A stretch of DNA of 41,843 nucleotides, from assembly GCA_001871075.1 (NCBI GenBank), contig MNUP01000003.1, positions 1-41,843 on the forward strand, given 5' to 3'. Below the pieces are notes generated by a model. It searched no databases and was not told the DNA's origin. It saw nothing but the letters and a program-made list of their open reading frames with translations. The position numbers and the translations under genes were made by a program. Each line of letters opens with the position of its first letter. The first letter of the stretch is position 1. This DNA comes from Candidatus Desantisbacteria bacterium CG1_02_49_89 (GTDB lineage: Bacteria > Desantisbacteria > UBA1551). Positions 1,055-29,159 of this stretch are shown piece by piece.

Positions 1055-1082
1055 TTGACATTTATTAAATTTATGATAAAAT
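1055..1082 (+). promoter_or_regulatory. sigma70-type promoter of the membrane operon
   Basis: TTGACA (1055-1060), 16-nt spacer ending TGA, TAAAAT (1077-1082). Confidence 0.6.
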
Positions 1083-1401: not shown

Positions 1402-2262
1402 CTGGAAAATTTTAAGCCTTTTGCCTGGCAGGGCATATCAATAAGGATCCCGGAAGAATGGGATCTCGGTGCGGTTTCGGGCGACAGCAAGGAAGGATAC
1501 TTCCGCCTGGACGACCCGGAAGACGTGCGCCTTGAACTCAGGTGGCGCAAGGAAAAGGATAAGGCAGACCTTGAAAAAGTCCTGAAAAAATACATTGACA
1601 GCCTCAAGGAAGGGGTAAAAAGAAAGAAGTTTTCGTTCTCCGAAATAAAACCGAGGGATATATTCGCGGATATACACCTGCGCAACAAGGAGAAGAGGAT
1701 ATTCTCCTGGAGATCCGGGAACAGGGAAGTGCTGAACCTGGTCGCGCAGTGCAACGAGTGCCATAATATAATAATGGCCCAGGTCTCCGTGACGGAAAAG
1801 GACGCTGAAAAGATACCGGAAATTTTCGCGGGCCTTGAAGACCACGCACAGGGTGACTTGGCACAGTGGGCGGTATATGATTTTAAATTTTCAATGCCGG
1901 CCTATTATACCCTGGATAAATTCTCGCTGAGAAGCGGGTACCTTGAGTTCAATTTTTTAGGGCCCGGCGCCGAGTTAAAACTGAGAAGGTGGGGCCTTGC
2001 GGGAATGCTGCTCAAGGGCATGGCACTTGAGAAATGGGCGGCAGGCGTTGCGCCCAAAACACTTAAAAGGGAATTTTCAAAGATCGTGAAAAAGGAAGAG
2101 CCGCTTCACGAAATAGTGGAGCTTGCGCTGAAACGCTGGAGCTGGTTCGCCTTCTACGCGCGCCGCTGCACGGAAGTCAACAAGATATACGCGCTTGAAT
2201 ACAACGGCAGGAAGGAAGAAGCCCTTTTTAGCCGCATAGCGGCAAAAATCCAGTGCCATTAA
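1402..2262 (+). CDS. Hypothetical soluble protein, first gene of the membrane operon (about 286 aa, probable CTG start)
   Basis: Frame open from the TAA at 1354-1356; AAGGAG at 1391-1396 lies 5 nt before an in-frame CTG at 1402; the extension (FKPFAWQGISIRIPEEWDL) resembles the internal segment LAQWAVYDFKFSMPAYYTL. Confidence 0.75.
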   Translation: MENFKPFAWQGISIRIPEEWDLGAVSGDSKEGYFRLDDPEDVRLELRWRKEKDKADLEKVLKKYIDSLKEGVKRKKFSFSEIKPRDIFADIHLRNKEKRIFSWRSGNREVLNLVAQCNECHNIIMAQVSVTEKDAEKIPEIFAGLEDHAQGDLAQWAVYDFKFSMPAYYTLDKFSLRSGYLEFNFLGPGAELKLRRWGLAGMLLKGMALEKWAAGVAPKTLKREFSKIVKKEEPLHEIVELALKRWSWFAFYARRCTEVNKIYALEYNGRKEEALFSRIAAKIQCH

Positions 2263-2269
2263 AAAATAA

Positions 2270-2366
2270 CCACGGAGACACTGAGGCACAGAGATTGTAA
2301 GTTAGAGTTTCATATATCCGGAGAATAAAAGCTATAATTTTTCTCCGTGTCTCAGTGCCTCTGTGG
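2270..2366. repeat. Intergenic inverted 9-mer repeat pair (CCACGGAGACACTGAGGCACAGAGA ... TCTCCGTGTCTCAGTGCCTCTGTGG)
   Basis: The two arms are near-perfect reverse complements around an AT-rich loop. Confidence 0.8.
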
Positions 2367-2382
2367 TAGAGTTTATTTGAAA

Positions 2383-2760
2383 ATGCTAAAACAAAAAGAA
2401 AAAGCGCCAAAACTTACAAGAAGGGACATCCTGGATTCCCGCCCGGTGAGGAACGCGGACTTAAAGTGGGAAAGAGCGGAAAACGGGGAGGTACGCATAA
2501 CCCTTCCCCTGCGCAAGACCTGGTGGGCAGGGATCCTTTCCAAGGTATTCACGGCCCCGAAGCAGAGGGTCCTGGGCCTTGACGAGATCGGGACCAAGGT
2601 GTGGGACGCCTGCGACGGGAACAGGACCGTGGAGCAGATGATCCAGCTGCTGAGCGATGACCTTAAAATGAACCGCAGGGAAGTGGAGACATCTCTTCTG
2701 CATTACCTGAAGACCCTGGGGTCGCGCGGCCTTATAGGGTTCGCAGTAGATAAAAAATAA
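2383..2760 (+). CDS. PqqD-family / RiPP recognition element (RRE)-like protein
   Basis: LDEIGTKVWDACDGNRTVEQMIQLL...LLHYLKTLGSRGLI matches the PqqD pattern; ATG at 2383 chosen as start. Confidence 0.8.
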   Translation: MLKQKEKAPKLTRRDILDSRPVRNADLKWERAENGEVRITLPLRKTWWAGILSKVFTAPKQRVLGLDEIGTKVWDACDGNRTVEQMIQLLSDDLKMNRREVETSLLHYLKTLGSRGLIGFAVDKK

Positions 2761-2882
2761 AATCGTTCATCGTTCATCGTTCATCGTCAGATTTTCTTTT
2801 TTCCCCTGTTTAAAAGGGGAATGCCGGGGGATTGCGACGCACGAAGCACGACGGACGATGCACGAGATTCAGGGGGGATAAC

Positions 2883-3503
2883 ATGGCGCATGAAAAACAG
2901 GAAAGACAGATCCACATGCCTTTGAGCGAAGCGTTCAAGATAGCGATTAGAAGCCTGCGCATAAGGTTCTGGAGGGCGATGATCACGACGCTGGGCATAA
3001 TGCTGGCGATCGCGTTCCTGGCGTCCATACTTACCTCAAACGCCATAAGCGTCAACCTTAAACTGGCGAGGGAAGAGATCCCCGCGCAGAGAGTGTGGGT
3101 TGTTATAATGTCCCTGCTGGTCTGCGTAGTAGGTATAACCAACTCCATGCTGATGGCGGTGACCGAAAGATACAAAGAGATCGGGACAATGAAGTGCCTC
3201 GGAGCTCTTGACAGGTTCATCATAGAGCTGTTCCTGCTTGAGTCAAGCCTGCAGGGTTTCATTGGCTCGCTTATAGGGACTCTGGGCGGGGTCATAACGA
3301 TGATCATCATGTATGCTTCCAAAGAGGGCGGCAAGGTCGGCGGCGCTCTGCAATTCTTTAAGAGTTTTTCGCTTACAGACATAGGCTGGATAATCCTGGC
3401 GTGCGTCGGCATAGGAGTGGCGCTTTCCGGCATCGGCGCGCTTTATCCCTCATACCGAGCCGCGAAGATGGTCCCGGCTGACGCAATGCGGGTCGAGCTC
3501 TAG
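2883..3503 (+). CDS. Small FtsX-like ABC permease lacking a large periplasmic domain
   Basis: GITNSMLMAVTERYKEIGTMKCLGA and YPSYRAAKMVPADAMR FtsX motifs; GGGGG RBS before ATG 2883. Confidence 0.85.
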   Translation: MAHEKQERQIHMPLSEAFKIAIRSLRIRFWRAMITTLGIMLAIAFLASILTSNAISVNLKLAREEIPAQRVWVVIMSLLVCVVGITNSMLMAVTERYKEIGTMKCLGALDRFIIELFLLESSLQGFIGSLIGTLGGVITMIIMYASKEGGKVGGALQFFKSFSLTDIGWIILACVGIGVALSGIGALYPSYRAAKMVPADAMRVEL

Positions 3504-3672
3504 TAATCCGATTAGCGCAACGCGGCGGCTCTTCGTGTAAGGTGCCCGCCCTGCACAAAGGCAGGGCGAGGTCTCGCCCCGATATTGATCGGGGCGGATA
3601 ACGTGTAAGGCAAAATCGGTGTAATCATAACCTGAAATCTGTGTAATCATATTTAATTTAAAGGAGGAAGAA

Positions 3673-4431
3673 ATGGCAGAAGAAAAGGCAGCTGACGAAA
3701 GGGTTGCTACAGTAAAGACGACGGGCCTTGTCAAAGAGTTCGTGATGGGCTCGGTCGTCGTGAAGGCGCTGCAGGGAGTGCATGTTGAAATAAAGAAAGG
3801 CGAATATATTTCGATCATGGGGCCGTCCGGCTCTGGCAAGACTACCCTTTTCAACATGATAGGGGGGCTTGACAAGCCGACTGACGGTAAGGTTTTCATA
3901 GACGAAATAGATATAGCTCAACTGGACGCCTACGAACTGGCGTGGCTGCGCTGCAGGAAAATAGGGTACATATTCCAGTCGTTCAACCTCATACCCGTTA
4001 TGACCGCCATTGAGAACGTCACCCTTCCCATGATCTTTGCCGGCACTCCCAATGACCAGGCGATGGACAAGGGGAAGGAACTGCTGGAGCTTGTAGGCCT
4101 TGGGGACCGCATCAAGCACAAGCCCCTGGAGCTTTCGGGAGGCCAGCAGCAGCGCGTTGCCATAGCAAGGTCGCTGGCGAACGATCCTGCGATCGTGCTC
4201 GCCGACGAGCCGACCGGGAACCTGGACCTGAAGACCGGCAAAGAGATCATAAGCCTGCTGAAAAGGCTGAACAGGGAAAAAAGCGTTACGGTTATTTCCG
4301 CGACCCACGACCTTAAGATGATAGACGTTTCGGACCGCATTATATGGATCCGCGACGGAAGGGTCGAAAGGATCGAGGAAAGAGAAGAAGTCAAGATGAA
4401 GGTGGGAGAGATCGAGGGAGAGGACGCGTAA
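3673..4431 (+). CDS. ABC transporter ATP-binding protein, LolD/MacB type
   Basis: Walker A GPSGSGKT, LSGGQQQRVAIAR signature, LADEPTGNLD, ATHD; AAGGAGG RBS. Confidence 0.95.
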   Translation: MAEEKAADERVATVKTTGLVKEFVMGSVVVKALQGVHVEIKKGEYISIMGPSGSGKTTLFNMIGGLDKPTDGKVFIDEIDIAQLDAYELAWLRCRKIGYIFQSFNLIPVMTAIENVTLPMIFAGTPNDQAMDKGKELLELVGLGDRIKHKPLELSGGQQQRVAIARSLANDPAIVLADEPTGNLDLKTGKEIISLLKRLNREKSVTVISATHDLKMIDVSDRIIWIRDGRVERIEEREEVKMKVGEIEGEDA

Positions 4432-4609
4432 TAATCTTTCGTGCATCGTCCGTCGTGCATCGTGCGTCGCAGAAACAGTTACTCGTTACCCCCTGCAGGT
4501 TTCTACGAAACCAAAACGCGGGGATCTTCGGCTGGTTACTAGTTGCTCGTTAAAGTTTTTACGATGAACGATGAACGACGAACGTCATTTTGCAGGGACG
4601 GGGGTGGAT

Positions 4610-6592
4610 ATGGGTAACGGGACGAATGTTGGGAAAGGATTTACGCCCAGAGCGTTCATTATCGGCATAATCTGCGTGCTTTTTCTTTCGATCGCGACGC
4701 CTTACTGCGACCTTGTGCTGAGGAGCACGTGGATCGGTTCCACGTTCCTGCCCATCGGGGCAATTTCGATATTCGTGGGGCTGATCCTCGTTCTGAACAC
4801 GATCCTTAAGGCAATGAAACTGGGCCTGAACACCTCGGAGCTGTTGCTGATCTACTGCATGATGATATTCGGCGCAGGCATCCCGTCGTTCGGGCTTTCG
4901 GTCCTGCTCATACCCAACATGAGCGCCCCGTTCTACCTGGCGAATGCCACCAACAAATGGAATAATTTCCTGCAGTACGTGCCGAAGTGGCTTGCCCCGC
5001 AGGACAAGGACGCGATAAGATACCTTTACGAAGGCCTTCCGGACGGCGCGAGCATGAGCATGCCCGCGCTTATCAGGCAGATCCCCTGGAAGCCGTGGAT
5101 CAAGCCGCTTTTCTTCTGGTCAATACTGGTGGCGGGGATCTACCTTGCCATGTTCAGCCTGGTTGTCATACTGCGTAAGCAGTGGGTGGAGAATGAGAAG
5201 CTCGTTTTTCCCACAGCGACCCTTCCGGTCGAGATGGTTACGGTCGAGCAGGGAACGCCTTCTTTCTTGCCCAGCTTTTTCAAGAACAAGATAATGTGGA
5301 TCTTCTTCGCGATACCGGCCGTCATATACTCGCTCCAGGGCCTTCACTATTACTTCCCCGCGATCCCGCAGATAACCCTTTTCCTTGACCTGGGGCAATA
5401 CCTTAAGGACAAACCCTGGAATGCCATGAAGTATATGTGGATACGCGTTTATTTCGTTGCGGTGGGTTTTGTTTTCCTGCTGCCGCTGCAGCTTGCTTTC
5501 AGCCTGTGGTTCTTCTATTTCTTCTTCCAGCTGCAGTCTGTCACGGGGAGTTTAATGGGATTCCCGATGCCGGAGATGGCAGGATATCCGTGCAGGGCTT
5601 TTGCCGGATACCAGATGGCAGGCGCGACCCTGACCTTCGCGGTCCTTTCGTTCTGGGGCATGAGGGGCCACCTGAAGGATATTTTCGCCAAGGTGTTCAA
5701 AAATGACCCCAAGGTTGACGACTCCAATGAGCCGGCGTCCTATAAGTTCGCGGTGTTCGGCCTGATAGCAGGCATACTGCTTATCGCGGTCTGGGGAATG
5801 ATGGCAGGGGTTAATTTCTGGCTGATGCTCCTGGTAGCCGTTATATATTTCCTTATTCTTGTATCGATGACCCGGCTTGTTTCCGAGGGCGGGATGTATT
5901 ACGTGCAGCAGCAGTTCAGGCCCCTTGAGCTCATAATACCCTTCACCGGCAGTGCGGCGATAGCTCCCGCAAGCATAACAATGATCGCGCTTTTCGAGCA
6001 GGCATTCGTGCGGGACATCAGGGCGACGCTCATGCCTTTCCTGATGGACGGCTACAAGATATCGGATTCAATGAACGTCAAAAAGAGGCAGGTCACCATA
6101 GCGATGGTGTGTTCAGTTGTCATAGCGGTGGTGGTTTCCTACGCGGCAGTGCTTGCTTTTATGTACAAGTACGGCGGCGTGAACCTTGATAACTGGTTCA
6201 CCCAGGGCTATCCGGGAGGCGTGACAAGCTCCCGCATTGCGGACCTTCTGAACAGGCCGAGAAAGCCCAGCATCAGGGACATAATTTCAATGATCGCCGG
6301 TGGCGGCGGGATGATATTTTTGCTCTGGATGAGAAGGCTTTTCCTGTGGTGGCCGTTCCACCCGCTGGGGTACATCATGGGAATTTCATGGCCGGTACTC
6401 CAGCTGTGGTTCTCGATATTTATAGCGTGGCTCGCGAAGGTCATAGTCCTGAAGATCGGGGGCATAAAGGTATACAGGATGCTTGTCCCCGGGTTCCTGG
6501 GGTTGATACTGGGAGAATTCGTGACGATCGGCGTCTGGGCACTTGTTGACTTCTTCCTCGGCGTCAAAGGACACCAGATCCTGTTTATATAA
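4610..6592 (+). CDS. Polytopic membrane protein, OPT-like (DUF6785/DUF6784-like) putative peptide transporter
   Basis: Many hydrophobic helices; LRKQWVENEKLVFP resembles the OPT E.L.FP motif; C-terminal WWPFHPLGY and GLILGE. Confidence 0.75.
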   Translation: MGNGTNVGKGFTPRAFIIGIICVLFLSIATPYCDLVLRSTWIGSTFLPIGAISIFVGLILVLNTILKAMKLGLNTSELLLIYCMMIFGAGIPSFGLSVLLIPNMSAPFYLANATNKWNNFLQYVPKWLAPQDKDAIRYLYEGLPDGASMSMPALIRQIPWKPWIKPLFFWSILVAGIYLAMFSLVVILRKQWVENEKLVFPTATLPVEMVTVEQGTPSFLPSFFKNKIMWIFFAIPAVIYSLQGLHYYFPAIPQITLFLDLGQYLKDKPWNAMKYMWIRVYFVAVGFVFLLPLQLAFSLWFFYFFFQLQSVTGSLMGFPMPEMAGYPCRAFAGYQMAGATLTFAVLSFWGMRGHLKDIFAKVFKNDPKVDDSNEPASYKFAVFGLIAGILLIAVWGMMAGVNFWLMLLVAVIYFLILVSMTRLVSEGGMYYVQQQFRPLELIIPFTGSAAIAPASITMIALFEQAFVRDIRATLMPFLMDGYKISDSMNVKKRQVTIAMVCSVVIAVVVSYAAVLAFMYKYGGVNLDNWFTQGYPGGVTSSRIADLLNRPRKPSIRDIISMIAGGGGMIFLLWMRRLFLWWPFHPLGYIMGISWPVLQLWFSIFIAWLAKVIVLKIGGIKVYRMLVPGFLGLILGEFVTIGVWALVDFFLGVKGHQILFI

Positions 6593-6894
6593 ATACATTT
6601 CAAATTGTAAATTTTAAATTGCAAATTGAAATTCGAAAATATACAGTGAAAACCACACGAGAATATTGCGAAGCAAAGAATTTTAAATTGCAAATTTTAA
6701 TTCCTTAAATTTGACTTTTGCAATTTATCCCCGCAGATTTCTTACCCTGTGAAATGCAAAGCATTTCCAGGACTTGAGTCCCTGAAATCGCATTCGCGAT
6801 TTCTAGGGGTGAAATCTAGACGCTGGGATCCCTTAGGGACAATTTGACTTTTAAAATTTATTTTGTCTTGAACTATAAAAAACAGGGGGATAGC

Positions 6895-9800
6895 ATGAGA
6901 AAAAAGATCTTTGTGGCTTTAACGATACCGCTGTTCTGTTTGTCCTTTATTCTTTTCACGGAGGCGCAGGATGATGAGTCAACAAACTACGCTTCCATTG
7001 CCGGCATTGTCGACGCGGGACGGCAGGCATCGGTCATACAGTACCTGGCGGGCCTGAAGTCCAGGATCACGGGCCTTGAAGGCGCGGACGCGGCAGCTTC
7101 GTACATTCAGGCGAAGTTCGCGGAACTTGGCCTGAGGGATATCCGGACCCTCGAATTCCCGGTCGTGGTGCCTGTTGAAAAACGCGCCGCCCTCACTGCC
7201 GCCGGGGGCAAATACGAACTCCATGCCCTCTGGCCCAACCTGACCAATCCATCCACTCCTGATTCCATAACCGGGCACATCATTTACGCGGGGACAAGCA
7301 AGCTGTATGAATACAACCAGAAATACGTGACCGGTTCGATAGTGCTGCTTGATTTTAACTGCGGCGGGGACTGGTTCAACGCGTTCCTGCTTGGAGCGAA
7401 GGCGGTCATATTCATTGAGCCGTCTGAAACCCTAAGGGGCGAAACGGAGAAAAAATACCTTTCAATACCCCTGTGCGTCCCCAGGTACTGGATCTCCCGC
7501 TCCCAGGGCGAAGCCCTCGCGAGAGCGGTTTCAGGCAAAAAGGAAATAATAGGCGAGCTGAGGTCAGCGATGGCCTGGGAGAAAAGGACGGGGAAGAATA
7601 TAGTCGGTTTCATACCCGGCCAGGACCCCAAGCTCAAGAACGACCTTGTGATAGTGGAATCATTTTACGACGCCATTTCCGTGGTGCCTGCCCTTGCTCC
7701 GGGCGCCGAGGATGCGTGCGGCATTTCCGCGCTGCTTGAGGTGGCAAGAACGCTTAAGGCATTCCCTCCCAAGCGCACGACCATGATACTCGCGTCCAGC
7801 GGCCACTTCCAGGGCCTTGCAGGCATGAAACATTTTATGAACTACTGGAACGAGCAGGCAGGCAAGGAAAAAGAGGGGAAAAAGACTACGGAAGACAACC
7901 TTGCTTTCAAGAAACCCGCGAAGTGCTCGAGCCGCGAGCCCTCGATATCGTATGTCCCGGACAGCGCGTTCGACGGAAAGATGAACACAAGATGGTCCTC
8001 GTCCCAGCGCAGGAGGGATGATGAATGGCTCACGGTGGATCTGCAAAAGCCGGAAACGATCGCGCAGATAGTTCTGCAGTGGGAGCTTTCATACTGCCCC
8101 AGATACGTTCTCATGTCTTCAGTTGACGGCACATCGTGGGACACTATTATTGAGGCTAAGTCCAATAAGGGCGGGGAAGACGTTGTAGCGTTTACGCCCC
8201 GCACAGCAAGGTACCTGAAGATGCAGCAGCTCAGCAGGGTTACGGGCTCAAGCGGCTGCTCGCTGTGGGAATTTGAGGTTTATCCAAAGCAGGTTACGGC
8301 GGTTACGGCGGTGCAATTCCCCGAGATCGCCCTGTCTATCTCGCTTGACCTTTCCAGCCGCGGAGAGGGAGTGGGCATTTTCTACAAGGGTTCTTTTTAC
8401 GACCAGAGGGAAGACGACCTGAAACCCAAGTATTCATCCATGGGGATGATGTGCTCGACATACGCTTCCGCGATAAGCGAGGAGCTGGGATTACCCGAGC
8501 AGTATTTCGCCAACGGCATAAACCCGCTGAAAGGAAGGTCGTGGAGGACGTTCATCCCCACCGACATGGCTTTTAACGGCGAAGCGGTGACGCTGTTCGG
8601 CAGGACAGGCATTACGCTTGCCTCGACAAATGACGGCCGCCCGCTGGTGGATACTCCGCTGAACAAGTTTGACAAGATCAACGTTTCAAACCTGGGCAGG
8701 CAGACGAAGTTCGCGGCCTGCCTTGTTAACAAGATGGTCAACGGCCCGAAGATGCTGACAAAACTCGACATCCCCAATTACGCCTGCACGCTGAAGGGAA
8801 GGGTTGTTGAGTTTGACCCCAGGGTGTCTTACATACCCAACACGCCGGTGCCCGGCGCCATAGTCGCGGGAAGGGGAAGGGCGAAGATCTTCACCGGGGT
8901 GCGCGGGGAGCTGATAGACATCGCAAGCTTTGAAGGAGGAGAAAACGGGACAGACACGGCGTCCTTTAAATTCATAGGCCTGCCGTCGGTCAGGACCAGT
9001 TTCATCCCGCCCGAGAACAAACAGCAGGTCGAGGCGTACATAATAGACACCGGAGGCCAGGTCATATACGCTCCGGATATGGGAGAGCAGGGAGCAAAGG
9101 CGTATCCGATATCAGTGCCGCTGGACTGGGCCGAGAAAGAGGCGACCGTAGTCGTTTTTCCCTGCGTGAGCGTGTCGATGTATGACCTGATCGACCAGAG
9201 GTTCTACAAGACGTTCCAGTCGGTAAGCGTTTTCGACGGAAAGACCAACGCCGAGCCCACGCTTTACGGGTTTTCTTTCCCAAGGCAGATGGGCACGTTC
9301 TTCCAGGAGCCTGCCGCCCTCATCTACATGAGGCCGAACGAGCTCCTTAAGGTCACAATGGGCGCGGGCATAGTGGGCACCCAGTTCACGCTCTTGAACT
9401 CGACCGAGACCGAACCACTGGGCCGCGGGTATAAAGCGATGTTCCACTCAAGCGTTCCGCTCACGCCGTACAAAGTGGCAAAGGACATGTGGATCCTTGA
9501 CAACTGGAGGATGGGCATCCTGAAAAGGCGCGGCATCGAGAATAACCGGCTTGAAGAGCTGCACCGCCTCGCGCTGAGGGACCTTACCAGGGCTGACACG
9601 GCGCTTGCCGCCATGGATTACGAGCATTTTATAAGGTATTCCCGCACAGCGTGGGGTTTTGAATCAAGGGCTTACCCTGATGTGCGCGCCACAGGCGACG
9701 ACGTTGTCAAGGGGGTCATATTTTATTTATTCCTGCTCCTGCCTTTCGCGTATTTCCTGGAAAGGCTTTTCTTCGCGTTCCCCGACATCAGGAAGCAGAT

Positions 9801-11748
9801 CGTGGGGACATTCGCGCTATTCCTTATAGTATTCGCTGCCCTCAGGTACGTGCACCCGGCGTTCGATATAACGCTGACGCCGTTCATGGTGCTGCTGGCG
9901 TTCATAACGCTTGCGCTTGCGATACTTGTCATCGGGATCATTATGGGCAAGTTCGACGAGCTGTTCAAGGAATACAAGAAGAAAGTGACGGGAGTTCATA
10001 CCACGGACGTTGGGCGCATAAGCGCCACAGCGACCGCGTTTTCGCTGGGCGTGTCCAACATGAGGAAGAGGAAAGGGAGGACCGGCCTGACGTGCGCGAC
10101 CCTGATACTCCTGACATTCACCGTGCTTTCGTTTACGTCCGTCAAGACCTTCATGCGCTCAAGCAAGATGTCCCTTGAAAAGCCGGCGATGTACGAGGGC
10201 CTTCTTTTCAGGGAGAGGAACTGGGAGCCGATGGAGGAAACGACCTACAAGATCCTGTACAACGAATTCAAGAATGAAACGAACCTGTCGCCCAGGGCGT
10301 GGTATTATTCAACGATGGTCGGGAACCAGTCGTTCATAGACCTTAAGAACGGCCAGAACAAATACACCATCACCGCGATAAACGGCCTAAGCCCCAACGA
10401 ATACAGGTTAAGCCCGGTATATGAAAGGGCGCTGACCGCAGGAAGGTGGTTTGAAGAAAACGATCTCTTCTCCTGCATCCTGCCCGCAAGCGTTGCCAAG
10501 AGCCTGGACGTGGGGATAGGCAGCGAGGTCATGATATTCGGGCTTCCGTTCAGGCTGATCGGCATACTCGACGAGGATGAGCTCAAGAACATCATCGACC
10601 TTGACGAGGAAGAGATAACCCCCGTTAATTACCTTGCCATGTCCGAAAGGATGACCCAGCAGAGCACGGCCGAATCACCCGAAGCCCCGCCCCAGAAATT
10701 CATACACCTGATGCCCCACGAGATAGCGTTCCTGCCTTATGCCACACTGATGAACCTCGGCGGCCAGCTGCGCTCAGTGGCGCTGGGCGCAAAGGACTCA
10801 GCGCAGGTGAAGGAGATCCTGGCTGACGTGATGCCCAGGCTTGCCCTGAACCTGTTCGTTGGAGAGGAAGGAAAAACCTATTACTCAAGCTCCATCGGAA
10901 GGACATCCTTCTCAGGCCTGCCCAACCTGTTCATACCCATACTTATCGCGGCTTTCATAGTGCTGAACACAATGCTGGGTTCGGTCTTTGAAAGGGTGAG
11001 GGAGATCGGGATCTACAGCGCGGTGGGGCTCGCGCCCTCGCACATCGCCGCCCTTTTCCTTGCCGAGGCATGCGTTTACGCGACCGTGGGTTCTGTTTCT
11101 GGATACCTGCTGGGCCAGGGCGTTGCCAAGATAATAACCGCCCTGCATCTTTTCCAGGGCCTGACCCTTAATTATTCCTCTGTTTCCGCGACCGGTTCCA
11201 TCGGTGTTGTCATCCTGATGGTGATACTGTCTTCCATATATCCTGCAAGGAAGGCATCCACGCTTGCGGTGCCGTCGGTAGAGAGGAGATGGAAGCTTCC
11301 GGAGCCTGTGGGCGACAGCTGGCATTTTGAGATGCCCTTCACGGTCACCGGGGAAGAAGCGAGGGGGATAAACGCGTTCCTGAAGGAGTTCTTTGACGGG
11401 CACGTGGAATATTCAATAGGCGATTTTTACACCGAGCCGGGCAAGCTTTTCGAACTTTCTTCGCAGTTCGGGACCGCGTATAAGCTGGCGCAGATGGCGT
11501 GGCTTGCGCCGTTCGACCTTGGGGTAAGCCAGGAGGTCAGCGTTGACACGGAGCCGATCAAGACCCCCGGAGTTTACAACCTTTCGCTCAACATTACCCG
11601 CAAAAGCGGCGACATCGTGTCCTGGAAGAGGACCAACACAAGGTTCGTGAACCACCTGCGGAAACAGCTGCTCCTGTGGAGGACCCTGCTTCCTGAGGAA
11701 AGGACCAGGTACGCCAAGAAAGCGGACGAGCTGATCACCAAAGCCTAG
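6895..11748 (+). CDS. Large fusion: signal peptide, PA/M28-peptidase-like ectodomain with inserted F5/8 type C (discoidin) module, TM bundle, MacB-like periplasmic region and FtsX permease (about 1617 aa)
   Basis: SRITGLEGADAAASYI, NIVGFIPG, PGAEDACGISALLE (M28-like); AFDGKMNTRWSS...EWLTVDL...SLWEFEVY (discoidin); NTMLGSVFERVREIGIYSAVG and YPARKAS (FtsX); GGGGG RBS before ATG 6895. Confidence 0.85.
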   Translation: MRKKIFVALTIPLFCLSFILFTEAQDDESTNYASIAGIVDAGRQASVIQYLAGLKSRITGLEGADAAASYIQAKFAELGLRDIRTLEFPVVVPVEKRAALTAAGGKYELHALWPNLTNPSTPDSITGHIIYAGTSKLYEYNQKYVTGSIVLLDFNCGGDWFNAFLLGAKAVIFIEPSETLRGETEKKYLSIPLCVPRYWISRSQGEALARAVSGKKEIIGELRSAMAWEKRTGKNIVGFIPGQDPKLKNDLVIVESFYDAISVVPALAPGAEDACGISALLEVARTLKAFPPKRTTMILASSGHFQGLAGMKHFMNYWNEQAGKEKEGKKTTEDNLAFKKPAKCSSREPSISYVPDSAFDGKMNTRWSSSQRRRDDEWLTVDLQKPETIAQIVLQWELSYCPRYVLMSSVDGTSWDTIIEAKSNKGGEDVVAFTPRTARYLKMQQLSRVTGSSGCSLWEFEVYPKQVTAVTAVQFPEIALSISLDLSSRGEGVGIFYKGSFYDQREDDLKPKYSSMGMMCSTYASAISEELGLPEQYFANGINPLKGRSWRTFIPTDMAFNGEAVTLFGRTGITLASTNDGRPLVDTPLNKFDKINVSNLGRQTKFAACLVNKMVNGPKMLTKLDIPNYACTLKGRVVEFDPRVSYIPNTPVPGAIVAGRGRAKIFTGVRGELIDIASFEGGENGTDTASFKFIGLPSVRTSFIPPENKQQVEAYIIDTGGQVIYAPDMGEQGAKAYPISVPLDWAEKEATVVVFPCVSVSMYDLIDQRFYKTFQSVSVFDGKTNAEPTLYGFSFPRQMGTFFQEPAALIYMRPNELLKVTMGAGIVGTQFTLLNSTETEPLGRGYKAMFHSSVPLTPYKVAKDMWILDNWRMGILKRRGIENNRLEELHRLALRDLTRADTALAAMDYEHFIRYSRTAWGFESRAYPDVRATGDDVVKGVIFYLFLLLPFAYFLERLFFAFPDIRKQIVGTFALFLIVFAALRYVHPAFDITLTPFMVLLAFITLALAILVIGIIMGKFDELFKEYKKKVTGVHTTDVGRISATATAFSLGVSNMRKRKGRTGLTCATLILLTFTVLSFTSVKTFMRSSKMSLEKPAMYEGLLFRERNWEPMEETTYKILYNEFKNETNLSPRAWYYSTMVGNQSFIDLKNGQNKYTITAINGLSPNEYRLSPVYERALTAGRWFEENDLFSCILPASVAKSLDVGIGSEVMIFGLPFRLIGILDEDELKNIIDLDEEEITPVNYLAMSERMTQQSTAESPEAPPQKFIHLMPHEIAFLPYATLMNLGGQLRSVALGAKDSAQVKEILADVMPRLALNLFVGEEGKTYYSSSIGRTSFSGLPNLFIPILIAAFIVLNTMLGSVFERVREIGIYSAVGLAPSHIAALFLAEACVYATVGSVSGYLLGQGVAKIITALHLFQGLTLNYSSVSATGSIGVVILMVILSSIYPARKASTLAVPSVERRWKLPEPVGDSWHFEMPFTVTGEEARGINAFLKEFFDGHVEYSIGDFYTEPGKLFELSSQFGTAYKLAQMAWLAPFDLGVSQEVSVDTEPIKTPGVYNLSLNITRKSGDIVSWKRTNTRFVNHLRKQLLLWRTLLPEERTRYAKKADELITKA

Positions 11749-11875
11749 CTGACGCCTGATTACACCGATAAAGAATTTTATTTTTAAATCTAATCTGAGT
11801 AATCATTGTTTAAGAAATCTGTGTAATCATTACTAAAGAAATCTGTGTAATCATATTTAACGAAAGGAGCCGATA

Positions 11876-13879
11876 ATGGAAGAACAAAAAGAAGAGGTAG
11901 TGGTAAAAAGAGAGCAGACCTCTGTAGGCTATACGCGCGAAAAAGCCCCCGTGGAGTTTATTGACGGTTTTTCGCTGCGCACTGTAATAGGGGCGTTCTT
12001 CGTTGGTTTTGTCATGATGCCTGCTTCAATATACCTGGGCCTTGTCGCAGGGACAAGCCTGGGCGACGCTGCCCAGTGGGTTACCATCATACTCTTCAGC
12101 GAAGTCGTAAGGCGTTCGTTCGGCACGCTGAAAAAGCAGGAACTCTACATGCTCTATTACATAGCGGGCAGCCTTATAGGTTTTGCCGGAGGCCTTGCGC
12201 TTTCAGGCGGAGTTTTCTCCTGGATGATATGGAACCAGTATGTTATCAGCTCCCCCACCGCGGAAAAATTCCGCATTGTCGAATACCTTAAGGCGGAAGG
12301 CGTTAACTGGATCGCTCCTTTCCCCGGCTCTGAGGCGCTTATCAACAGGACGTTCTTCCACAAGGACTGGATCCCGGCGATAGTGCTGATGGTTATCCTT
12401 AACGTCCTTGCAAGGATGAACTGGCTGGGGCTCGGGTATTTCGCGTTCCGCGTGACCTCTGATTTTGAAAGGCTTCCCTTCCCGATGGCGCCGATAGCGG
12501 CTCAGGGCGCGACCGCGCTTGCCGAGGTGAACGGGAAGCGCGAAACCTGGAGATGGAGGGTGTTCAGCATCGGCTCGGTGATCGGGGTGGCGTTCGGGTT
12601 AATATACATACTCGTCCCCACGTTTTCAGGCGCGATCTTCAACAAGCCTTTCCAGATCCTTCCCATTCCTTTTATTGACCTGACCACGAACACGGAGGGA
12701 ATACTGCCTGCCGCCCTTACAGGCCTGAACACGGAGCTGGGCAGCATGATGGCAGGATTTGTCATTCCTTATCATATAGTGCTGGGTATGTTCATAAGCT
12801 CGGTTATCTGCCAGATAGGCCTTAACCCCGTCCTCTACAACGCGGGTATACTGCATACCTGGAGGAAGGGGATGGGCTCGATCCCCACAAGCATGGCGAA
12901 CAGCCTGGATTTCTGGCTGAGCATCTCGATAGGAACGGCGCTTACAATCGCGATCCTGGGTATATTCAATGTCGTGAAGGCATTCACTAAGAAGAAAAAC
13001 GCAGGCGAAAGGGGAAGCTTCGCGCCTGTGCCCGGGCGCGGTGATTTCCCGATAAAACTCGCCCTGGGCCTGTGGCTGGCTTCAACGCTTGGTTACATAA
13101 TAGTATGCCACAAGCTTGTGCCCCTTTTCCCCATATGGCTTTTTGTTGTATACGGGTTTATATGGACCCCGCTGAACACTTACATTTCGGCGAGGATGAT
13201 AGGCCTTACCGGAGGCGGGGTCGGGTTCCCTTACCTGAAGGAAGCAACGTTTATCCTGAGCGGCTACAAGGGCGTGGCGATATGGTGGGCTCCCGTACCG
13301 CTGTTTGACCACGGATGGGCGGCCCAGAGGTTCAGGGAAGTTGAACTCACAGGCACCAAGATTATGAGCGTTATCAAGGCGGAAATTTTCATGTTCCCCG
13401 TAATGCTTCTGTGCAGCCTGATATTCTGGTCCTTCATCTGGAAACTGGGGCCGATACCGTCCGCGATATACCCGTACGCGACCAAGTTCTGGCCCCTGCA
13501 CGCGATGTACCAGTGCCTGTGGTCTACCGCTACGGTAGAAAAGACGAGCTGGATGCTTCAGGCGATCCAGCCGAAATGGATACTGCTGGGGCTTGGTACC
13601 GGCGGCATTCTTTACGGCATAACAGCCTGGATGGGCGCGCCCATACTATTTTTCTACGGACTGCTGGGCGGCATGGGGGGCTGGCCGCATTACACGATCC
13701 CGTTAATGTTCGGAGGGCTTCTTGGCAAATACGTCTTCACAAAGCAGTTCGGGCAGGAGAAGTGGAGGGCGTTTGCGCCTGTGCTCGTTGCGGGATACGC
13801 ATGCGGCATGGGCCTGACGGGAATGTGCGGCATCGCGATAGCGCTGATCTCCAAGGCCGTATATCAAATGCCCTTTTAA
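11876..13879 (+). CDS. Polytopic membrane protein, OPT-like putative peptide transporter (second, divergent)
   Basis: Many TM helices; DFERLPFPMAP motif; AAGGAG RBS. Confidence 0.75.
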   Translation: MEEQKEEVVVKREQTSVGYTREKAPVEFIDGFSLRTVIGAFFVGFVMMPASIYLGLVAGTSLGDAAQWVTIILFSEVVRRSFGTLKKQELYMLYYIAGSLIGFAGGLALSGGVFSWMIWNQYVISSPTAEKFRIVEYLKAEGVNWIAPFPGSEALINRTFFHKDWIPAIVLMVILNVLARMNWLGLGYFAFRVTSDFERLPFPMAPIAAQGATALAEVNGKRETWRWRVFSIGSVIGVAFGLIYILVPTFSGAIFNKPFQILPIPFIDLTTNTEGILPAALTGLNTELGSMMAGFVIPYHIVLGMFISSVICQIGLNPVLYNAGILHTWRKGMGSIPTSMANSLDFWLSISIGTALTIAILGIFNVVKAFTKKKNAGERGSFAPVPGRGDFPIKLALGLWLASTLGYIIVCHKLVPLFPIWLFVVYGFIWTPLNTYISARMIGLTGGGVGFPYLKEATFILSGYKGVAIWWAPVPLFDHGWAAQRFREVELTGTKIMSVIKAEIFMFPVMLLCSLIFWSFIWKLGPIPSAIYPYATKFWPLHAMYQCLWSTATVEKTSWMLQAIQPKWILLGLGTGGILYGITAWMGAPILFFYGLLGGMGGWPHYTIPLMFGGLLGKYVFTKQFGQEKWRAFAPVLVAGYACGMGLTGMCGIAIALISKAVYQMPF

Positions 13880-13984
13880 ATACAGTCATGGGTCATGTGT
13901 CATGAGTCATGAGTAAAATTGTAAATTTCGTGACTTCGTGACACTTTCGTGTCTTCGTGGAAATCTGTGGTTCCGGGGGGATTT

Positions 13985-14677
13985 ATGAAAAAGACATTTG
14001 TTTTCTTAGCGGTTGTTTTAACTTTTAACGTTCAACTTTTAACTTTTAACTGTTTTTCGGAAGTGAAAGGGCTTGTCGGGTACTGGAGTTTTGACGAAGG
14101 AAAAGGAACTATCGCGAAGGATTCCGCGGGAAAGAGCGACGGGGAGCTGCAGGGCGACCCGGAATGGGTTGAAGGCAAAAAGGGGAAGGCGCTTTATTTT
14201 GACGGGGCGGAGCAGACGGTCATAATACAGAATTCGGACAGCCTGAGTTCCGCGGATATCACGGTAATGATGTGGATCAAGGCGGATGAACTGCGCATCC
14301 AGGGCCTTGCCGATAAATCGAGTTCCGCGGATTCCTGGCGGTTATTCATGGACAGCGATGTTGGGAATGTCGAGTTTGACGCGTGCGCTGACCAGTTCAA
14401 CGCTTCAAGCAAGGCAAAAGCCACGGCGGGGAAGTGGTACCACGTGGCAGGGACGTTTGAGTCCGCAACCAAGAAAATGAAGATATATGTTGACGGAAAA
14501 ATGTCAGGCATTTTCGCGAAGGCGGAGACAGCGGGCAACGACTTTGACGGCAGTATCCAGATCGCTTCTCCCGAGAACAACAGGTTCCACGGCGCGATCG
14601 ACGAGGTGAAGATCTTCAACAGGGCTCTTACGGCGGAGGAGATCGCGGCGGAAACCGGAGTTGCGGTCACGCAATAG
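13985..14677 (+). CDS. Secreted LamG-like (concanavalin A-type jelly-roll) protein
   Basis: GLVGYWSFDEGKG, GKALYFDG, WYHVAGTF...KIYVDG, FHGAIDEVKIFNRALTAEEI; signal peptide. Confidence 0.9.
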   Translation: MKKTFVFLAVVLTFNVQLLTFNCFSEVKGLVGYWSFDEGKGTIAKDSAGKSDGELQGDPEWVEGKKGKALYFDGAEQTVIIQNSDSLSSADITVMMWIKADELRIQGLADKSSSADSWRLFMDSDVGNVEFDACADQFNASSKAKATAGKWYHVAGTFESATKKMKIYVDGKMSGIFAKAETAGNDFDGSIQIASPENNRFHGAIDEVKIFNRALTAEEIAAETGVAVTQ

Positions 14678-14730
14678 ATAAGTTTACAAAGTTTATATAG
14701 TTTACAGAGTTTACAAGTGAGATTTTATTT

Positions 14731-14770: not shown

Positions 14771-14808
14771 AAAAAAAGGCGGGGAATTTTCCCCGCCTTT
14801 TATTTTTT
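14771..14808. terminator. Bidirectional intrinsic terminator between the convergent membrane operon and carB
   Basis: AAAAAAAGGCGGGGAA-TT-TTCCCCGCCTTTTATTTTTT, with A tract before and T tract after the stem. Confidence 0.9.
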
Positions 14809-14867: not shown

Positions 14868-14888
14868 GCTGACACGCTGACACGCTTT

Positions 14889-17800: not shown

Positions 17801-18182
17801 CCTCGCCCCGTTCTATCGCATCCGCCTGAACGCCTATAATGCGGGTCCCGTATTTCTGGAGTATGCCTTTTTTGAAAAGGTCCGAAGCCATGTTAAGGCC
17901 TGTCTGGCCACCAAGGTTGGGAAGCAGGGCATCCGGCCTTTCTTTCTCGATGATCTTTTCAATGAATTCAGCTGTCAAAGGCTCGATATAGGTAATGTCT
18001 GCCATGCCGGGATCAGTCATAATAGTGGCGGGATTTGAGTTCACAAGAATGATCTTGTATCCCATAGAACGCAGAGCCTTGCATGCCTGCGTCCCTGAAT
18101 AATCAAATTCGCACGCCTGCCCGATGATTATCGGGCCCGAACCTATTATTAATACCTTGTTAATATCAGGCAGCTTTGCCAT
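14889..18182 (-). CDS. carB: Carbamoyl-phosphate synthase large subunit, full length
   Basis: [17 protein letters not shown], two ATP-grasp halves (GVHTGDS, GIHSGDS, EVNPRASRT), C-terminal MGS domain. Confidence 0.97.
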   Translation of the reverse strand: MAKLPDINKVLIIGSGPIIIGQACEFDYSGTQACKALRSMGYKIILVNSNPATIMTDPGMADITYIEPLTAEFIEKIIEKERPDALLPNLGGQTGLNMASDLFKKGILQKYGTRIIGVQADAIERGEDRLAFKETMQKLDIPLPQSDLAYSVEEALEIAKKLGYPVIVRPAYTMGGTGGGTVFNEEELKFTAARGITASLIGQILIEKSVIGWEELELEVVRDRENNMITVCFIENIDPMGVHTGDSFCSAPMLTISKEVQDKLQEYSYRIVEAIGVIGGTNIQFAHNSFDDRIVAIEINPRTSRSSALASKATGFPIAWVSSRLAGGDLLKDIPYWRDGTLDKYTPSGDYVVIKFARWAFEKFPGAKDKLGTEMKAVGEIMSIGKNYKEAFQKSIRGLENNRYGLGFAKNFNKLSADELRDLLRDPSSERQFIMYEALRKGVSVDELYEKTKIKKWFIEQMKELVEFEEELILKGQRSKLKNKKLDTGHWTLDTALLRKAKEWGFSDRYLGKILGIPEEQIRNQRKKINKTEAWDKVPVSGASAYYYYSTYCDRLSTFQSSNKVLSKTGSYNGADKVETSDKKKIMILGGGPNRIGQGIEFDYCCVHCSLALKELGYETIMVNSNPETVSTDYDTSDKLYFEPLTLEDVLSIVEKEKPLGVIVQLGGQTPLNLTVPLQKAGVNILGTSPDSIDIAEDRERFKQLLDKLKLKQAENGTAFSFKEAKKIASEIGYPVMVRPSYVLGGRAMRVVYDESSLEEFMAIAVEASPEHPILVDKFLEDAIEIDVDAVADGDKCVVCGIMEHIEEAGIHSGDSASVIPPFSLSDKVIAELKESTYKMAKELKVIGLMNVQYAIKNETIYVLEVNPRASRTVPFVSKATGVPWAKIASKVMVGKKLKELGIEKEVDITHVAVKESVFPFNRFPGVDPILGPEMKSTGEVMGIDREFGLAFAKSQIAAGTILPVKGNVFISVKEKDKRSMIFIAKKLADLGFRILATKGTAKVLENNDIQVTEVQKIHEGRPNVVDMMKNKEIQLLINTPSGKKPKSDQISIRAYAVMNNIPIITTVSGAQAAVNGIESLTKKQIGIKSLQEYHKE

Positions 18183-27598: not shown

Positions 27599-27616
27599 AA
27601 AGGGGAGGTACAAAAA

Positions 27617-27949: not shown

Positions 27950-27950
27950 A

Positions 27951-29129: not shown

Positions 29130-29159
29130 TAAAATTTAATACCAAGGTTGGTTTTCAAC

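Follow-up and report, generated by a model that had tools for sequence, protein, structure and literature searches.

The window is the whole stretch of DNA analysed, 41,843 nucleotides of contig MNUP01000003.1 from Candidatus Desantisbacteria bacterium CG1_02_49_89. According to the ORF list and translations, positions 1402-14677 are filled by eight + strand ORFs (p1-p8), which confirms an earlier claim, made in a first-pass annotation of this DNA, that eight co-oriented genes lie between a promoter and a terminator. The features are:

1055..1082, + strand: sigma-70-like promoter (TTGACA, 16 nt, TAAAAT, with TG; 11/12 matches)
1402..2262, + strand: p1, 286-aa cytoplasmic protein of no family, with an N-terminal PsbP/Mog1-like domain and a second alpha/beta domain
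2347..2760, + strand: p2, small PqqD/RRE-type protein (PF05402, E 1.6e-9, 38.4 bits against a cut-off of 23.4)
2832..3503, + strand: p3, short 4-TM FtsX permease (PF02687, E 9.7e-20)
3673..4431, + strand: p4, ABC ATPase of the LolD/MacB/FtsE class (ABC_tran, E 2.2e-33)
4571..6592, + strand: p5, polytopic membrane protein, OPT-superfamily-like (DUF6785, E 3.1e-152; DUF6784, E 4.1e-30)
6895..11748, + strand: p6, giant fusion with Pfam matches to Peptidase_M28 (partial), F5/8 type C, MacB_PCD and FtsX
7894..8283, + strand: discoidin/CBM32-like module of p6, aa 351-480 (E 1.5e-21 to 4zy9)
9709..9978, + strand: three additional TM helices within p6, strongly conserved, about aa 956-1045 (alignment of homologues)
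11266..11748, + strand: cytoplasmic C-terminal domain of p6, alpha+beta, the family signature (model pLDDT 89, pTM 0.84)
11876..13879, + strand: p7, 667-aa polytopic membrane protein of no Pfam family, a distant OPT-superfamily relative
13949..14677, + strand: p8, secreted LamG protein (Laminin_G_3, E 3.2e-27)
14774..14801, both strands: bidirectional intrinsic terminator (12-pair stem, 7 GC pairs, T runs on both strands)

The promoter-like sequence lies within the sole stretch of the upstream spacer that is kept in the relative L189 (85% over 55 nt), and the terminator is common to p1-p8 and a convergent carB-like ORF (14889-18182, minus strand). Within the window, the spacers of 127-299 nt upstream of p4, p5, p6 and p7 contain repeats, and a tandem motif with 64 sites genome-wide precedes p4 and p7. 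Internal regulation inside the run is therefore possible.

Domain profile searches gave no Pfam or NCBIfam match for p1. Its structure model (pLDDT 86, pTM 0.82) matched CyanoP (2xb3; VIA Z 13.8, rmsd 3.1 over 138 residues), and the predicted fold is PsbP/Mog1. Judged from its relatives, the start of p1 at 1402 is right, with initiation at a non-canonical CTG or at ATT 1399: homologue alignments begin at residue 2-8, and L189 has the same ATT-CTG start downstream of its Shine-Dalgarno sequence. In relatives with both genes p2 comes after p1; it exceeds the Pfam PqqD cut-off over its winged-helix part, scores under the cut-offs of every NCBIfam PqqD equivalog, and possibly starts at ATG 2383 instead. 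The true start of p3 is probably ATG 2883, homologue alignments beginning at residue 16-24. Since only about 20 residues separate TM1 from TM2 in its translation, p3 has no periplasmic domain. The translation of p4 shows the Walker A, signature and Walker B motifs, and the protein is 64-76% identical to the ATPases of relatives. Its score against the LolD equivalog was 223.5 bits, under the cut-off of 307.75, and the MacB and FtsE scores were likewise under theirs.

Both p5 and p7, at about 670 aa, look like members of the OPT superfamily. Unlike the OPT family proper (PF03169), neither had a Pfam OPT match, even at E<=10, nor did either match a solved structure by sequence, and p5 is filed under DUF6785/DUF6784. 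However, three of 22 p7 homologues matched Pfam OPT (best 6.3e-7), and in the ESM Atlas p7 groups with 'peptide transporter' clusters (feature scores 0.97-0.98, TM 0.87-0.92) whose members carry OPT, DUF6785 clusters ranking lower (0.86-0.88). The earlier claim of two OPT-like transporters thus has indirect support. Compared with each other, the p5 and p7 profiles reached just E 0.12, with an E-[KR]-L-x-F-P motif aligned between them. Four paralogues of p5 lie elsewhere in the genome, and their surroundings vary: three have a gene for a giant secreted protein next to them or close by (with LamG in two cases, a beta-propeller with CHU_C in the other), and one sits among glycoside-hydrolase-like genes, two such Pfam matches being under cut-off. 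These contexts were counted for the uptake direction.

The ORF of p6 opens at TTG 6844, and the ATG at 6895 agrees with an identical database protein of 1617 aa (P0001). From the N-terminus, it consists of a signal anchor, a PA/M28-like pseudo-peptidase, the CBM32-like discoidin, a middle region without an assigned domain, the three extra TM helices, a MacB periplasmic domain with an FtsX 4-TM core, and a 160-aa cytoplasmic domain. The outer-domain profile matched the aminopeptidases 2ek8 (E 8.9e-22) and YwaD (1.4e-16), the transferrin receptor (5e-9) and nicalin (6e-7). In its PA and M28 folds p6 is like both the PA-domain aminopeptidases and the M28-fold receptors (transferrin receptor, nicalin, nicastrin), and on sequence grounds the outer domain appears to resemble the transferrin receptor, GCPII and nicalin. 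Aligned to YwaD (6hc6), the first zinc-ligand histidine becomes F274 and the Glu-Glu pair G320-H321. Across the p6 family, the former position is F, Y or A and the latter G/A then H (22/22 homologues each), the bridging aspartate being retained in 2/22 only. By this alignment, the M28-like domain is devoid of the canonical catalytic residues in all 22 family members, a loss of zinc ligands that it shares with the inactive M28-fold receptors. Because these residues have been replaced, the outer domain is more likely to bind than to cut. Such a reading is insecure, though, since D276, H321, D502, D597, R599 and D603 are invariant in the family and could together make up a novel catalytic or metal site. 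These polar residues, together with the fusion to an ABC permease, set p6 apart from the M28-fold receptors.

Several further modules of p6 are specific to particular lineages. Its discoidin matched 4zy9, the chitosan-binding module of a Paenibacillus glucanase/chitosanase; Poribacteria forms carry LysM (up to E 1e-17), and one homologue has a parvulin rotamase (PPIase) domain (E 7e-12). These add-ons appear to point to a peptide or glycopeptide ligand, but the glycan-binding ones, being confined to lineages, may serve localisation rather than cargo. Towards the C-terminus, E973, R974 and H1004 in the extra TM helices are invariant (22/22 aligned homologues), and the permease region matched the structures of MacB, YtrF, LolF and LolC by profile. 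The model of the C-terminal domain is an antiparallel sheet with helices; its fold matches were just middling (Z up to 8.1), and Foldseek returned nothing at E<=0.001.

Discoidin and LamG had been taken as hints at glycosylated substrates, but both proved to be local. The discoidin module is missing from the p6 homologue of genome G001, which has the arrangement p6-p7-p1-p2-p3-p4. In L189, a 77%-identical relative, the LamG gene is reduced to a two-piece, frame-shifted remnant, and no same-strand LamG match was found in 93 loci with at least 7 kb either side of the search gene. Paralogues of p8 gave more than 50 tblastn matches in the genome. On this comparative evidence, p8 is best described as a local add-on outside the conserved system.

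The remaining genes fall into two blocks: block A comprises the DUF6785 protein (p5), p6 and p7, and block B p1, p2, p3 and p4. The blocks adjoin in either order or occupy separate loci, and the seven families recur in three arrangements across several phyla, the taxa including Armatimonadota, Poribacteria, WS1, Latescibacterota, Gemmatimonadota, Planctomycetota and others. Counting only context-complete loci (those in which the search gene is flanked by 7 kb or more on each side), 49 were anchored on p6, and these contained p7 in 47 cases, always immediately 3' of p6, p1 in 43, the ATPase in 42 and PqqD in 40. Among 44 anchored on p7, p6 was present in 40, DUF6785 lay beside p6/p7 in 15, and the full order p6-p7-p1-p2-p3-p4 occurred in 15. 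L189 retains the order of the window from p1 to p7, including p5 adjoining p6/p7, with proteins 64-91% identical and gaps of 3-79 nt. When five genomes with a p6-p7 locus but no block B there were searched for a p1 homologue, all five had one elsewhere (E<=7e-52). This separate homologue adjoins FtsX and ATPase genes in the Brocadiia, Planctomycetota and Nitrospiraceae records, with PqqD also present in the first two; the Latescibacterota genome has it within a second locus (p5-p6-p7-p1-p2), and in the Abditibacteriota genome it stands alone. Finally, in a sample of 151 genomes from one phylum, the profile of the p6 C-terminal domain had matches in 127, mostly in one copy and up to three, in frames nearly all of about 1,300-2,250 aa (the few shorter ones were on short contigs).

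Gene-neighbourhood conservation had been proposed as a check on the first-pass annotation, and p1-p7 do co-occur far beyond chance across several phyla; a shared function is therefore well founded. Very probably, then, to judge from gene context, p1-p7 are one conserved multi-component cell-envelope system built of two blocks. The membrane block would consist of p6, p7 and, in some lineages, p5, and the energising block of p1, p2, p4 and, in many lineages, p3. A literature search found no description of this p1-p7 system, in line with the earlier statement that no characterised system has such a composition. It would thus be a widespread but unstudied membrane system.

The closest relatives of its core are the type VII ABC systems (MacB, LolCDE, FtsEX, YbbAP-TesA, YtrF, LolF), with which it shares a 4-TM FtsX core with a MacB-type periplasmic domain (p6) and a separate LolD/MacB-class ATPase (p4). 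In contrast to them, p6 also carries an outer domain of roughly 900 aa at its N-terminus, three invariant extra TM helices and a cytoplasmic tail domain, the partner p3 is stripped of its periplasmic domain, and p4 scores under the cut-off of every NCBIfam equivalog. To our knowledge, OPT-like, PqqD and PsbP-like proteins are not among the partners of characterised type VII systems, nor is any OPT transporter known to work with an ABC system. We infer a type VII (MacB-like) mechanotransducer assembled from p6, p3 and a pair of p4 subunits. The heterodimeric FtsX pair proposed earlier, reminiscent of LolC/LolE, is consistent with p3 and p6 both being FtsX proteins, but cannot be universal because p3 is absent from its usual slot between PqqD and ATPase in Poribacteria-type loci.

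Our leading, though tentative, interpretation is that this machine imports a peptide or glycopeptide. ATP hydrolysis by p4 in the cytoplasm would move the periplasmic domain and large outer domain of p6; the outer domain would capture the ligand outside the membrane and pass it on for uptake through p7 and p5, the OPT-superfamily permeases. On the cytoplasmic side, p1 with its PsbP/Mog1 fold and p2 with its RRE fold would bind either the peptide as it arrives or those parts of the machine that face the cytoplasm, and would thereby link cargo to ATP turnover. The OPT transporters that have been characterised act as importers. RREs, on the other hand, are known to us solely as leader-peptide binders, and we know of no role for one in any uptake system. 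Of the earlier interpretation, the shared system, the OPT-like pair and the LolD/MacB-class ATPase are kept, whereas LamG and discoidin are dropped as system parts.

The same components could be arranged for the opposite direction, although we consider this doubtful. A ribosomal peptide encoded elsewhere would be recognised in the cytoplasm by p2 and p1 and exit via p7/p5 or the MacB core, the outer domain handling or expelling it outside. Known RREs bring a ribosomal precursor peptide to an enzyme, and p2 has the PqqD/RRE fold. MacB-type pumps are exporters or extractors, and p4 is near the export ATPases DarD (darobactin, 211 bits) and L_ocin_972 (bacteriocin, 189 bits), both under cut-off; MacB, darobactin and bacteriocin exporters act on periplasmic or membrane cargo. 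However, we know of no OPT-family exporter. As stated earlier for the gene run, no radical SAM, YcaO or lasso enzyme is present, and none is conserved at the loci of relatives; neighbour clustering over 81 loci showed no conserved RiPP enzyme or precursor peptide nearby, a modifying enzyme being conserved in none of them, and neither the compact operons nor the upstream spacer held a precursor-like conserved small ORF. Unlike other PqqD/RRE proteins, p2 thus has no maturase or precursor in cis; its constant companions are a PsbP/Mog1-fold protein and an ABC system. The near-universal distribution in one phylum also differs from the patchy spread of RiPP clusters. That distribution, mostly single-copy, fits a housekeeping envelope role equally with nutrient uptake. 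An FtsEX-like cell-wall mechanotransducer, its outer domain binding or trimming peptidoglycan stem peptides and the OPT-like proteins recycling (glyco)peptides, is unlikely in our estimate. It would accommodate the LysM of Poribacteria-type p6, the proximity of the CBM32 to GlcN-oligomer binders, and a SPOR-domain gene after the ATPase in L059; moreover, type VII systems such as FtsEX and YbbAP-TesA are described as able to drive outer enzymes instead of transport. Yet each of these modules and neighbours occurs in certain lineages only, p6 lacks the canonical set of M28 catalytic residues, and no division or cell-wall genes are conserved near the 81 clustered loci.

Two further explanations seem highly improbable. 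An ABC pump, OPT-like permeases and unrelated small genes might lie together by position alone, as the long, repeat-bearing spacers of the window might suggest; the exact p1-p7 order is confined to this lineage, occurring in 0/93 context-complete loci but present in L189. Against this stand the recurrence of the families, even as two-block separate loci, and the co-occurrence counts. Equally remote is an anti-phage or CRISPR-ancillary membrane effector, a reading raised by the match of p6 aa 956-1514 to the PADLOC model CARF_m8--CARF_LolE_TM (PDLC01991, E 5.7e-62). The match spans profile positions 75-592 of 810, corresponding to the three extra TM helices and MacB core; the profile beyond position 592 is unmatched, and p6 ends instead in a different alpha+beta domain, without a Rossmann fold. 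The conserved neighbours include neither cas nor other defence genes, and the near-universal spread is unlike that of a defence island. The PADLOC family is probably a sister branch of the p6 permease family.

Eight consecutive open reading frames fill the plus strand of the window from 1402 to 14677, and these, together with their Pfam assignments, bear out the first-pass annotation, which had placed eight co-oriented genes here:

1402-2262, plus strand: p1, 286 aa, no Pfam family
2347-2760, plus strand: p2, 137 aa, Pfam PqqD (38.4 bits, cut-off 23.4)
2832-3503, plus strand: p3, 223 aa, Pfam FtsX (E 9.7e-20)
3673-4431, plus strand: p4, 252 aa, Pfam ABC ATPase
4571-6592, plus strand: p5, 673 aa, DUF6785 (E 3.1e-152) and DUF6784 (E 4.1e-30)
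6844 or 6895-11748, plus strand: p6, 1634 or 1617 aa, partial Peptidase_M28, F5/8 type C, MacB_PCD and FtsX
11876-13879, plus strand: p7, 667 aa, no Pfam family
13949-14677, plus strand: p8, 242 aa, Laminin_G_3

The p6 family is large: of 7997 proteins scored, 1755 reached E<=0.001. Each of the 120 best exceeds 1240 bits and is 1437-2528 aa long, and their names go no further than 'FtsX-like permease', 'M28 family peptidase' or hypothetical. A p6 scan of one genome per species returned at least 594 relatives among at least 598 pattern matches, and a p7 scan gave 530 among 597. The best 80 loci of each scan were retained, so that Armatimonadota and Poribacteria (taxon names throughout are those in the record titles) dominate the p6-anchored set. 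Within it, tblastn at E<=1e-4, which may overlook PqqD and FtsX genes that are short or divergent, detected p7 in 75 loci, p1 and the ATPase in 61 each, PqqD in 54 and DUF6785 in 2; LamG was found in 16, weakly and on the opposite strand. The p7-anchored scan reached wider, into Abditibacteriota, Latescibacterota, Gemmatimonadota, Planctomycetota including Brocadiia, Nitrospiraceae and others, and its 77 new loci contained p6 in 65 cases and DUF6785 in 20. When ORFs were clustered across 81 loci, the clusters present in more than 28 were those of the core only, namely p6 (with p3 merged in), p7, p1, the ATPase and PqqD; no further family extended across phyla, the next clusters (at most 28 loci) being lineage-specific neighbours.

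Linkage was also counted in context-complete loci, with at least 7 kb on either side of the anchor. In the 49 anchored on p6, p7 was present in 47, p1 in 43, the p4-type ATPase in 42, PqqD in 40, a short FtsX in 11 and DUF6785 in 1, while the 44 anchored on p7 held p6 in 40, the short FtsX and the ATPase in 18 each, p1 in 17, PqqD in 16 and DUF6785 in 15. Gene orders among these loci included p6-p7-p1-p2-(p3)-p4, p3-p4-p6-p7, p6-p5-p7 and p5-p6-p7; the order of the window itself occurred in none of the 93. It is repeated, however, in a metagenome relative, L189, with proteins 64-91% identical and gaps of 3-79 nt. All five genomes searched that have a p6-p7 locus without the cytoplasmic genes carry a p1 homologue elsewhere: together with FtsX and the ATPase in three (two of these also with PqqD), in a second locus of the order p5-p6-p7-p1-p2 in one, and alone in one. 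Finally, when 151 genomes were sampled from the phylum of one of the loci examined (L016), a profile of the p6 C-terminal domain found matches in 127 of them, mostly once per genome. The co-occurrence of p1-p7 across several phyla thus stands up to the neighbourhood check. Taken together, the linkage counts, the separately located p1 genes, L189 and the p6-tail profile argue that p1-p7 are one conserved system of two blocks, one formed by p5, p6 and p7 and the other by p1-p4, in which p5 and p3 vary by lineage and p8 is a passenger.

The LamG protein p8 and the discoidin module of p6 had been counted as parts of the system, and neither survives comparison. The LamG gene is reduced to two out-of-frame fragments in L189, and G001, the sole genome of the same order compared, has the arrangement p6-p7-p1-p2-p3-p4 without DUF6785, LamG or the discoidin module. 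The LamG (Laminin_G_3) family is greatly expanded in the genome of the window, where tblastn gave more than 50 matches, often tandem, spread over some 25 contigs. At three loci (L021, L062 and L042), mobile or defence genes lie between p6 and p7, the inserts being a DNA methylase with a Uma2 nuclease, a nucleotidyltransferase-HEPN pair and an IS200-like transposase; the p6-p7 junction tolerates insertions.

By domain content, we classify p1-p7 as a type VII (MacB/FtsX) ABC system with an unprecedented set of partners, predicted to operate by ATP-driven mechanotransmission towards the periplasm. The four-TM FtsX permease domain (PF02687) is present in both p3 and p6 (E 1.2e-15 for the latter). 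A periplasmic MacB-type domain between TM1 and TM2 is found in p6 (MacB_PCD, E 1.2e-7, 32.7 bits, cut-off 27); p3 has none, since only about 20 residues separate its first two TM helices. The nearest NCBIfam models to p4 are LolD, MacB, DarD, DevA and FtsE, all below their cut-offs.

The outer part of p6 resembles M28 peptidases (PF04389, partial, 33.4 bits, cut-off 21.3; YwaD, E 1.8e-11), and a family profile of the N-terminal part recovered the PA-domain aminopeptidases 2ek8 (E 8.9e-22) and YwaD (E 1.4e-16), aligning also with transferrin receptor and nicalin. In the alignment with YwaD, the first zinc-ligand histidine corresponds to F274 and the Glu-Glu pair to G320-H321. All 22 homologues have F, Y or A at the histidine position and G or A followed by H at the Glu-Glu position, and the bridging aspartate is retained in only two. 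At the positions examined (His, Glu-Glu and bridging Asp), the canonical co-catalytic zinc ligands and Glu-Glu pair are thus missing, apart from the aspartate of those two, and p6 is not a canonical M28 peptidase. Six residues, D276, H321, D502, D597, R599 and D603, are invariant across the 22. The outer domain would either bind a ligand, in the manner of transferrin receptor or nicalin, or hold a rewired site. For the discoidin insert (aa 351-480), the nearest match was to chitosan-binding CBM32 modules from a Paenibacillus glucanase (E 1.5e-21), and in other lineages the outer part of p6 homologues includes LysM (up to E 1e-17) or a parvulin rotamase (E 7e-12).

Past a middle region with no domain assigned, p6 contains three additional TM helices with invariant E973, R974 and H1004. 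The periplasmic MacB domain comes next, then the FtsX core and, at the end, a cytoplasmic domain of 160 aa. The model of this tail domain is confident (pLDDT 89) and shows an antiparallel sheet, but its fold matches were middling and unspecific (TBP, KA1, AHSA1 and START-like folds, none above Z 8.1), Foldseek gave no match at E<=0.001, and no fold is assigned. The PADLOC candidate model CARF_m8--CARF_LolE_TM does match p6 (aa 956-1514, E 5.7e-62), but the alignment is confined to the TM/MacB core and no CARF entries were among the fold matches of the tail domain; we judge a role in defence unlikely.

The first-pass annotation had called p5 and p7 OPT-like transporters. The Pfam OPT profile (PF03169) gave no match to either, even at E<=10, and p5 instead scored above cut-off for both DUF6785 (508 bits) and DUF6784 (104.4 bits). 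BLASTP detected no similarity between p5 and p7, profile comparison a weak one (E 0.12) in which a shared E-[KR]-L-x-F-P motif was aligned, and a sequence search of both profiles against solved structures returned nothing at E<=1. Pfam OPT is matched by 3 of 22 aligned p7 homologues (best 6.3e-7), some homologues carry the source name 'peptide transporter', and in the ESM Atlas p7 groups with clusters automatically named peptide transporter (features 0.97-0.98, structure TM 0.87-0.92), 15-33% of whose members contain OPT. DUF6785/DUF6784 clusters score lower against p7 (0.86-0.88), and some of these also carry OPT. It is likely, but not proven, that p5 and p7 are OPT-superfamily-like, which would predict proton-coupled import of oligopeptides or metal chelates.

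In the second block, p1 and p2 lie side by side, and the stop codon of one often touches or overlaps the start codon of the next. p1 belongs to no family and lacks a signal peptide. Its model (pLDDT 86, pTM 0.82) contains an N-terminal PsbP/Mog1-fold domain, best matched by cyanobacterial PsbP (2xb3, Z 13.8, rmsd 3.1, 138 residues), and matched also by MOG1 (5yfg, Z 12.1); Foldseek gave PsbP 6kac_P at E 3.6e-5. Further matches include the T6SS immunity protein TplEi, LpqN, DcrB and the Eag-type chaperone SciW, and a second domain has a weak likeness to the C-terminal domain of RseB/MucB (Z 7-8). The PsbP/Mog1 fold is typically a binding module rather than an enzyme; the likeness of the p1 model to it is one of fold only and no evidence of function. 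By eye, 16 of 20 aligned p1 members have a CxxC motif. For p2, the score against Pfam PqqD upholds its identification as a PqqD/RRE protein; all NCBIfam PqqD equivalogs fall far below cut-off, and a conserved insert lies between its strands.

How might these components work together? In MacB-type ABC proteins, motion driven by ATP is passed on to the periplasmic parts; the OPT transporters characterised so far take up oligopeptides or metal chelates, and RREs bind peptides. On the strength of these roles and the anatomy of p6, we propose that p6 (with p3) and p4 would form a mechanotransducer, that the receptor-like head of p6 would capture a peptide-containing ligand and hand it to p7/p5 for import, and that p1 and p2 would act on the cytoplasmic side, with physical contacts predicted between the parts. 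We hold this uptake reading tentatively, at somewhat less than an even chance; to our knowledge an RRE in an importer has no precedent. Nutrient uptake is mildly favoured by the contexts of four other DUF6785 genes in the same genome, which are mixed: three have giant secreted proteins next to them or nearby (LamG in two cases, a beta-propeller with CHU_C in one), and the fourth lies among glycoside-hydrolase-like genes that are partly below Pfam cut-offs. Export of a peptide made elsewhere strikes us as improbable; we give equally little credence to an FtsEX-like role at the cell wall coupled to recycling. A RiPP pathway is argued against by near-universal presence in one phylum and by the lack of a precursor or maturase. 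Indeed, the earlier observation that RiPP enzymes and an obvious precursor are missing extends beyond the window: no precursor peptide or modifying enzyme lies next to the RRE there, the clustered ORFs of the 81 loci include no radical SAM, YcaO or lasso enzyme, and comparison with L189 revealed no conserved small ORF upstream of the cluster.

A further reading, which we consider rather unlikely, is that a type VII ABC mechanotransducer with a receptor-like pseudo-peptidase head docks physically, via the three additional invariant TM helices, on OPT-superfamily permeases and drives or gates them, while a cytoplasmic RRE and PsbP-fold pair reads the peptide cargo. If true, this new class of hybrid envelope machine would belong to the core functions of Armatimonadota, Poribacteria, Latescibacterota, Gemmatimonadota, several Planctomycetota and allied uncultured phyla, and would include the first RRE working outside RiPP biosynthesis. 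Only a handful of type VII ABC systems are known (MacB, Lol, FtsEX and YbbAP), each performing different mechanical work outside the membrane. We found no published description of the p1-p7 system, and nothing relevant on DUF6785, DUF6784 or CARF_m8, in the literature; the branch is present in hundreds of species-level genomes and, for at least one phylum, in most of the genomes sampled. Solving its cargo would give a function to DUF6785/DUF6784, the p1 and p7 families and the p6 tail domain, would test whether ABC mechanotransducers cooperate with secondary permeases and whether RREs have roles beyond RiPP pathways, and might account for a basic trait, of the envelope or of nutrition, in phyla that are poorly known.

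The boundaries of the cluster have features of their own. The p1 start annotated at 1402 proved correct despite the lack of ATG, GTG or TTG, as homologue alignments begin at residue 2-8. The first 41 codons include no canonical start, yet the residues they encode are conserved across phyla, and L189 has an identical ATT-CTG (5148-5153; 1399-1404 in the window) behind its own Shine-Dalgarno sequence. This non-canonical start suggests that weak translation initiation is deliberate. A promoter-like site at 1055-1082 matches at 11 of 12 positions and lies in the sole part of the upstream spacer conserved in L189 (85% over 55 nt); such sites numbered 23 against 11.8 expected (sd 4.0). At the other end, a bidirectional 12-pair terminator (14774-14801) precedes the convergent carB, although terminator-like sites overall were not enriched (17 against 16.6 expected). 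The leader also contains a long imperfect palindrome (1166-1232), which lies 84-177 nt beyond the promoter-like site, about 170 nt ahead of the start of p1. It has many copies in the community, with depth up to about 5x that of its flanks.

Six of the eight spacers of the cluster open directly after the stop codon with a 6-8-nt tandem repeat, among them TCATCGT x4, GTCATGN x4 and AGTTTACA x4:

2763-2790, spacer tandem repeat
4437-4467, spacer tandem repeat
6600-6640, spacer tandem repeat
13885-13913, spacer tandem repeat
14680-14716, spacer tandem repeat
14868-14888, spacer tandem repeat

The 24 sequencing runs found were all of DNA, from groundwater or aquifer metagenomes. Assembled contigs break at the repeat-bearing spacers and depth there rises 2-5 fold, so these spacers hold multi-copy repeats. 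Among the contigs listed as matching the window, none bridges the p5-p6 spacer (6767-6823), where contiguity rests on two identical metagenome records and L189.

A further motif, AATC[TG]GTGTAATC, usually forms a tandem pair about 22-24 nt apart that ends 10-30 nt before a Shine-Dalgarno sequence:

3615-3660, plus strand, motif
11817-11862, plus strand, motif
ahead of the minus-strand genes that end at 34937, 37832 and 40985, motif
about 1278-1320, degenerate copy of the motif

The 2.48-Mb genome has 64 clustered sites before many different genes, counted regardless of what these encode, and the idea that the motif marks a nitrogen regulon was rejected on this ground. Across the whole window no Rfam family reached its gathering score, and none matched the motif, which may be a lineage-specific promoter or regulator site.

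Elsewhere in the genome, DUF6785 and p7 paralogues are located on contigs C94, C87, C31 and C135 (L010-L013) and C78 (L014). One of the four DUF6785 paralogues has an in-frame TGA, and a p7 paralogue, 62% identical, is split by a stop into two ORFs in a region that encodes a CHU_C protein of more than 2160 aa, a weak PorV-like match (below cut-off) and RmuC. Beyond the cluster, the minus strand of the window (14889-41843) is occupied by a nitrogen-assimilation block encoding the large and small chains of carbamoyl-phosphate synthase, glutamate dehydrogenase, parts of glutamate synthase, glutamine synthetase and NAD synthase, with a GAF-ANTAR regulator at 23387-24082. This block is interrupted on the plus strand by a low-GC island (26984-32003; 27-38% against about 50%) that carries a LexA-like S24 repressor together with two subunits, methylase and specificity, of a type I restriction-modification system.
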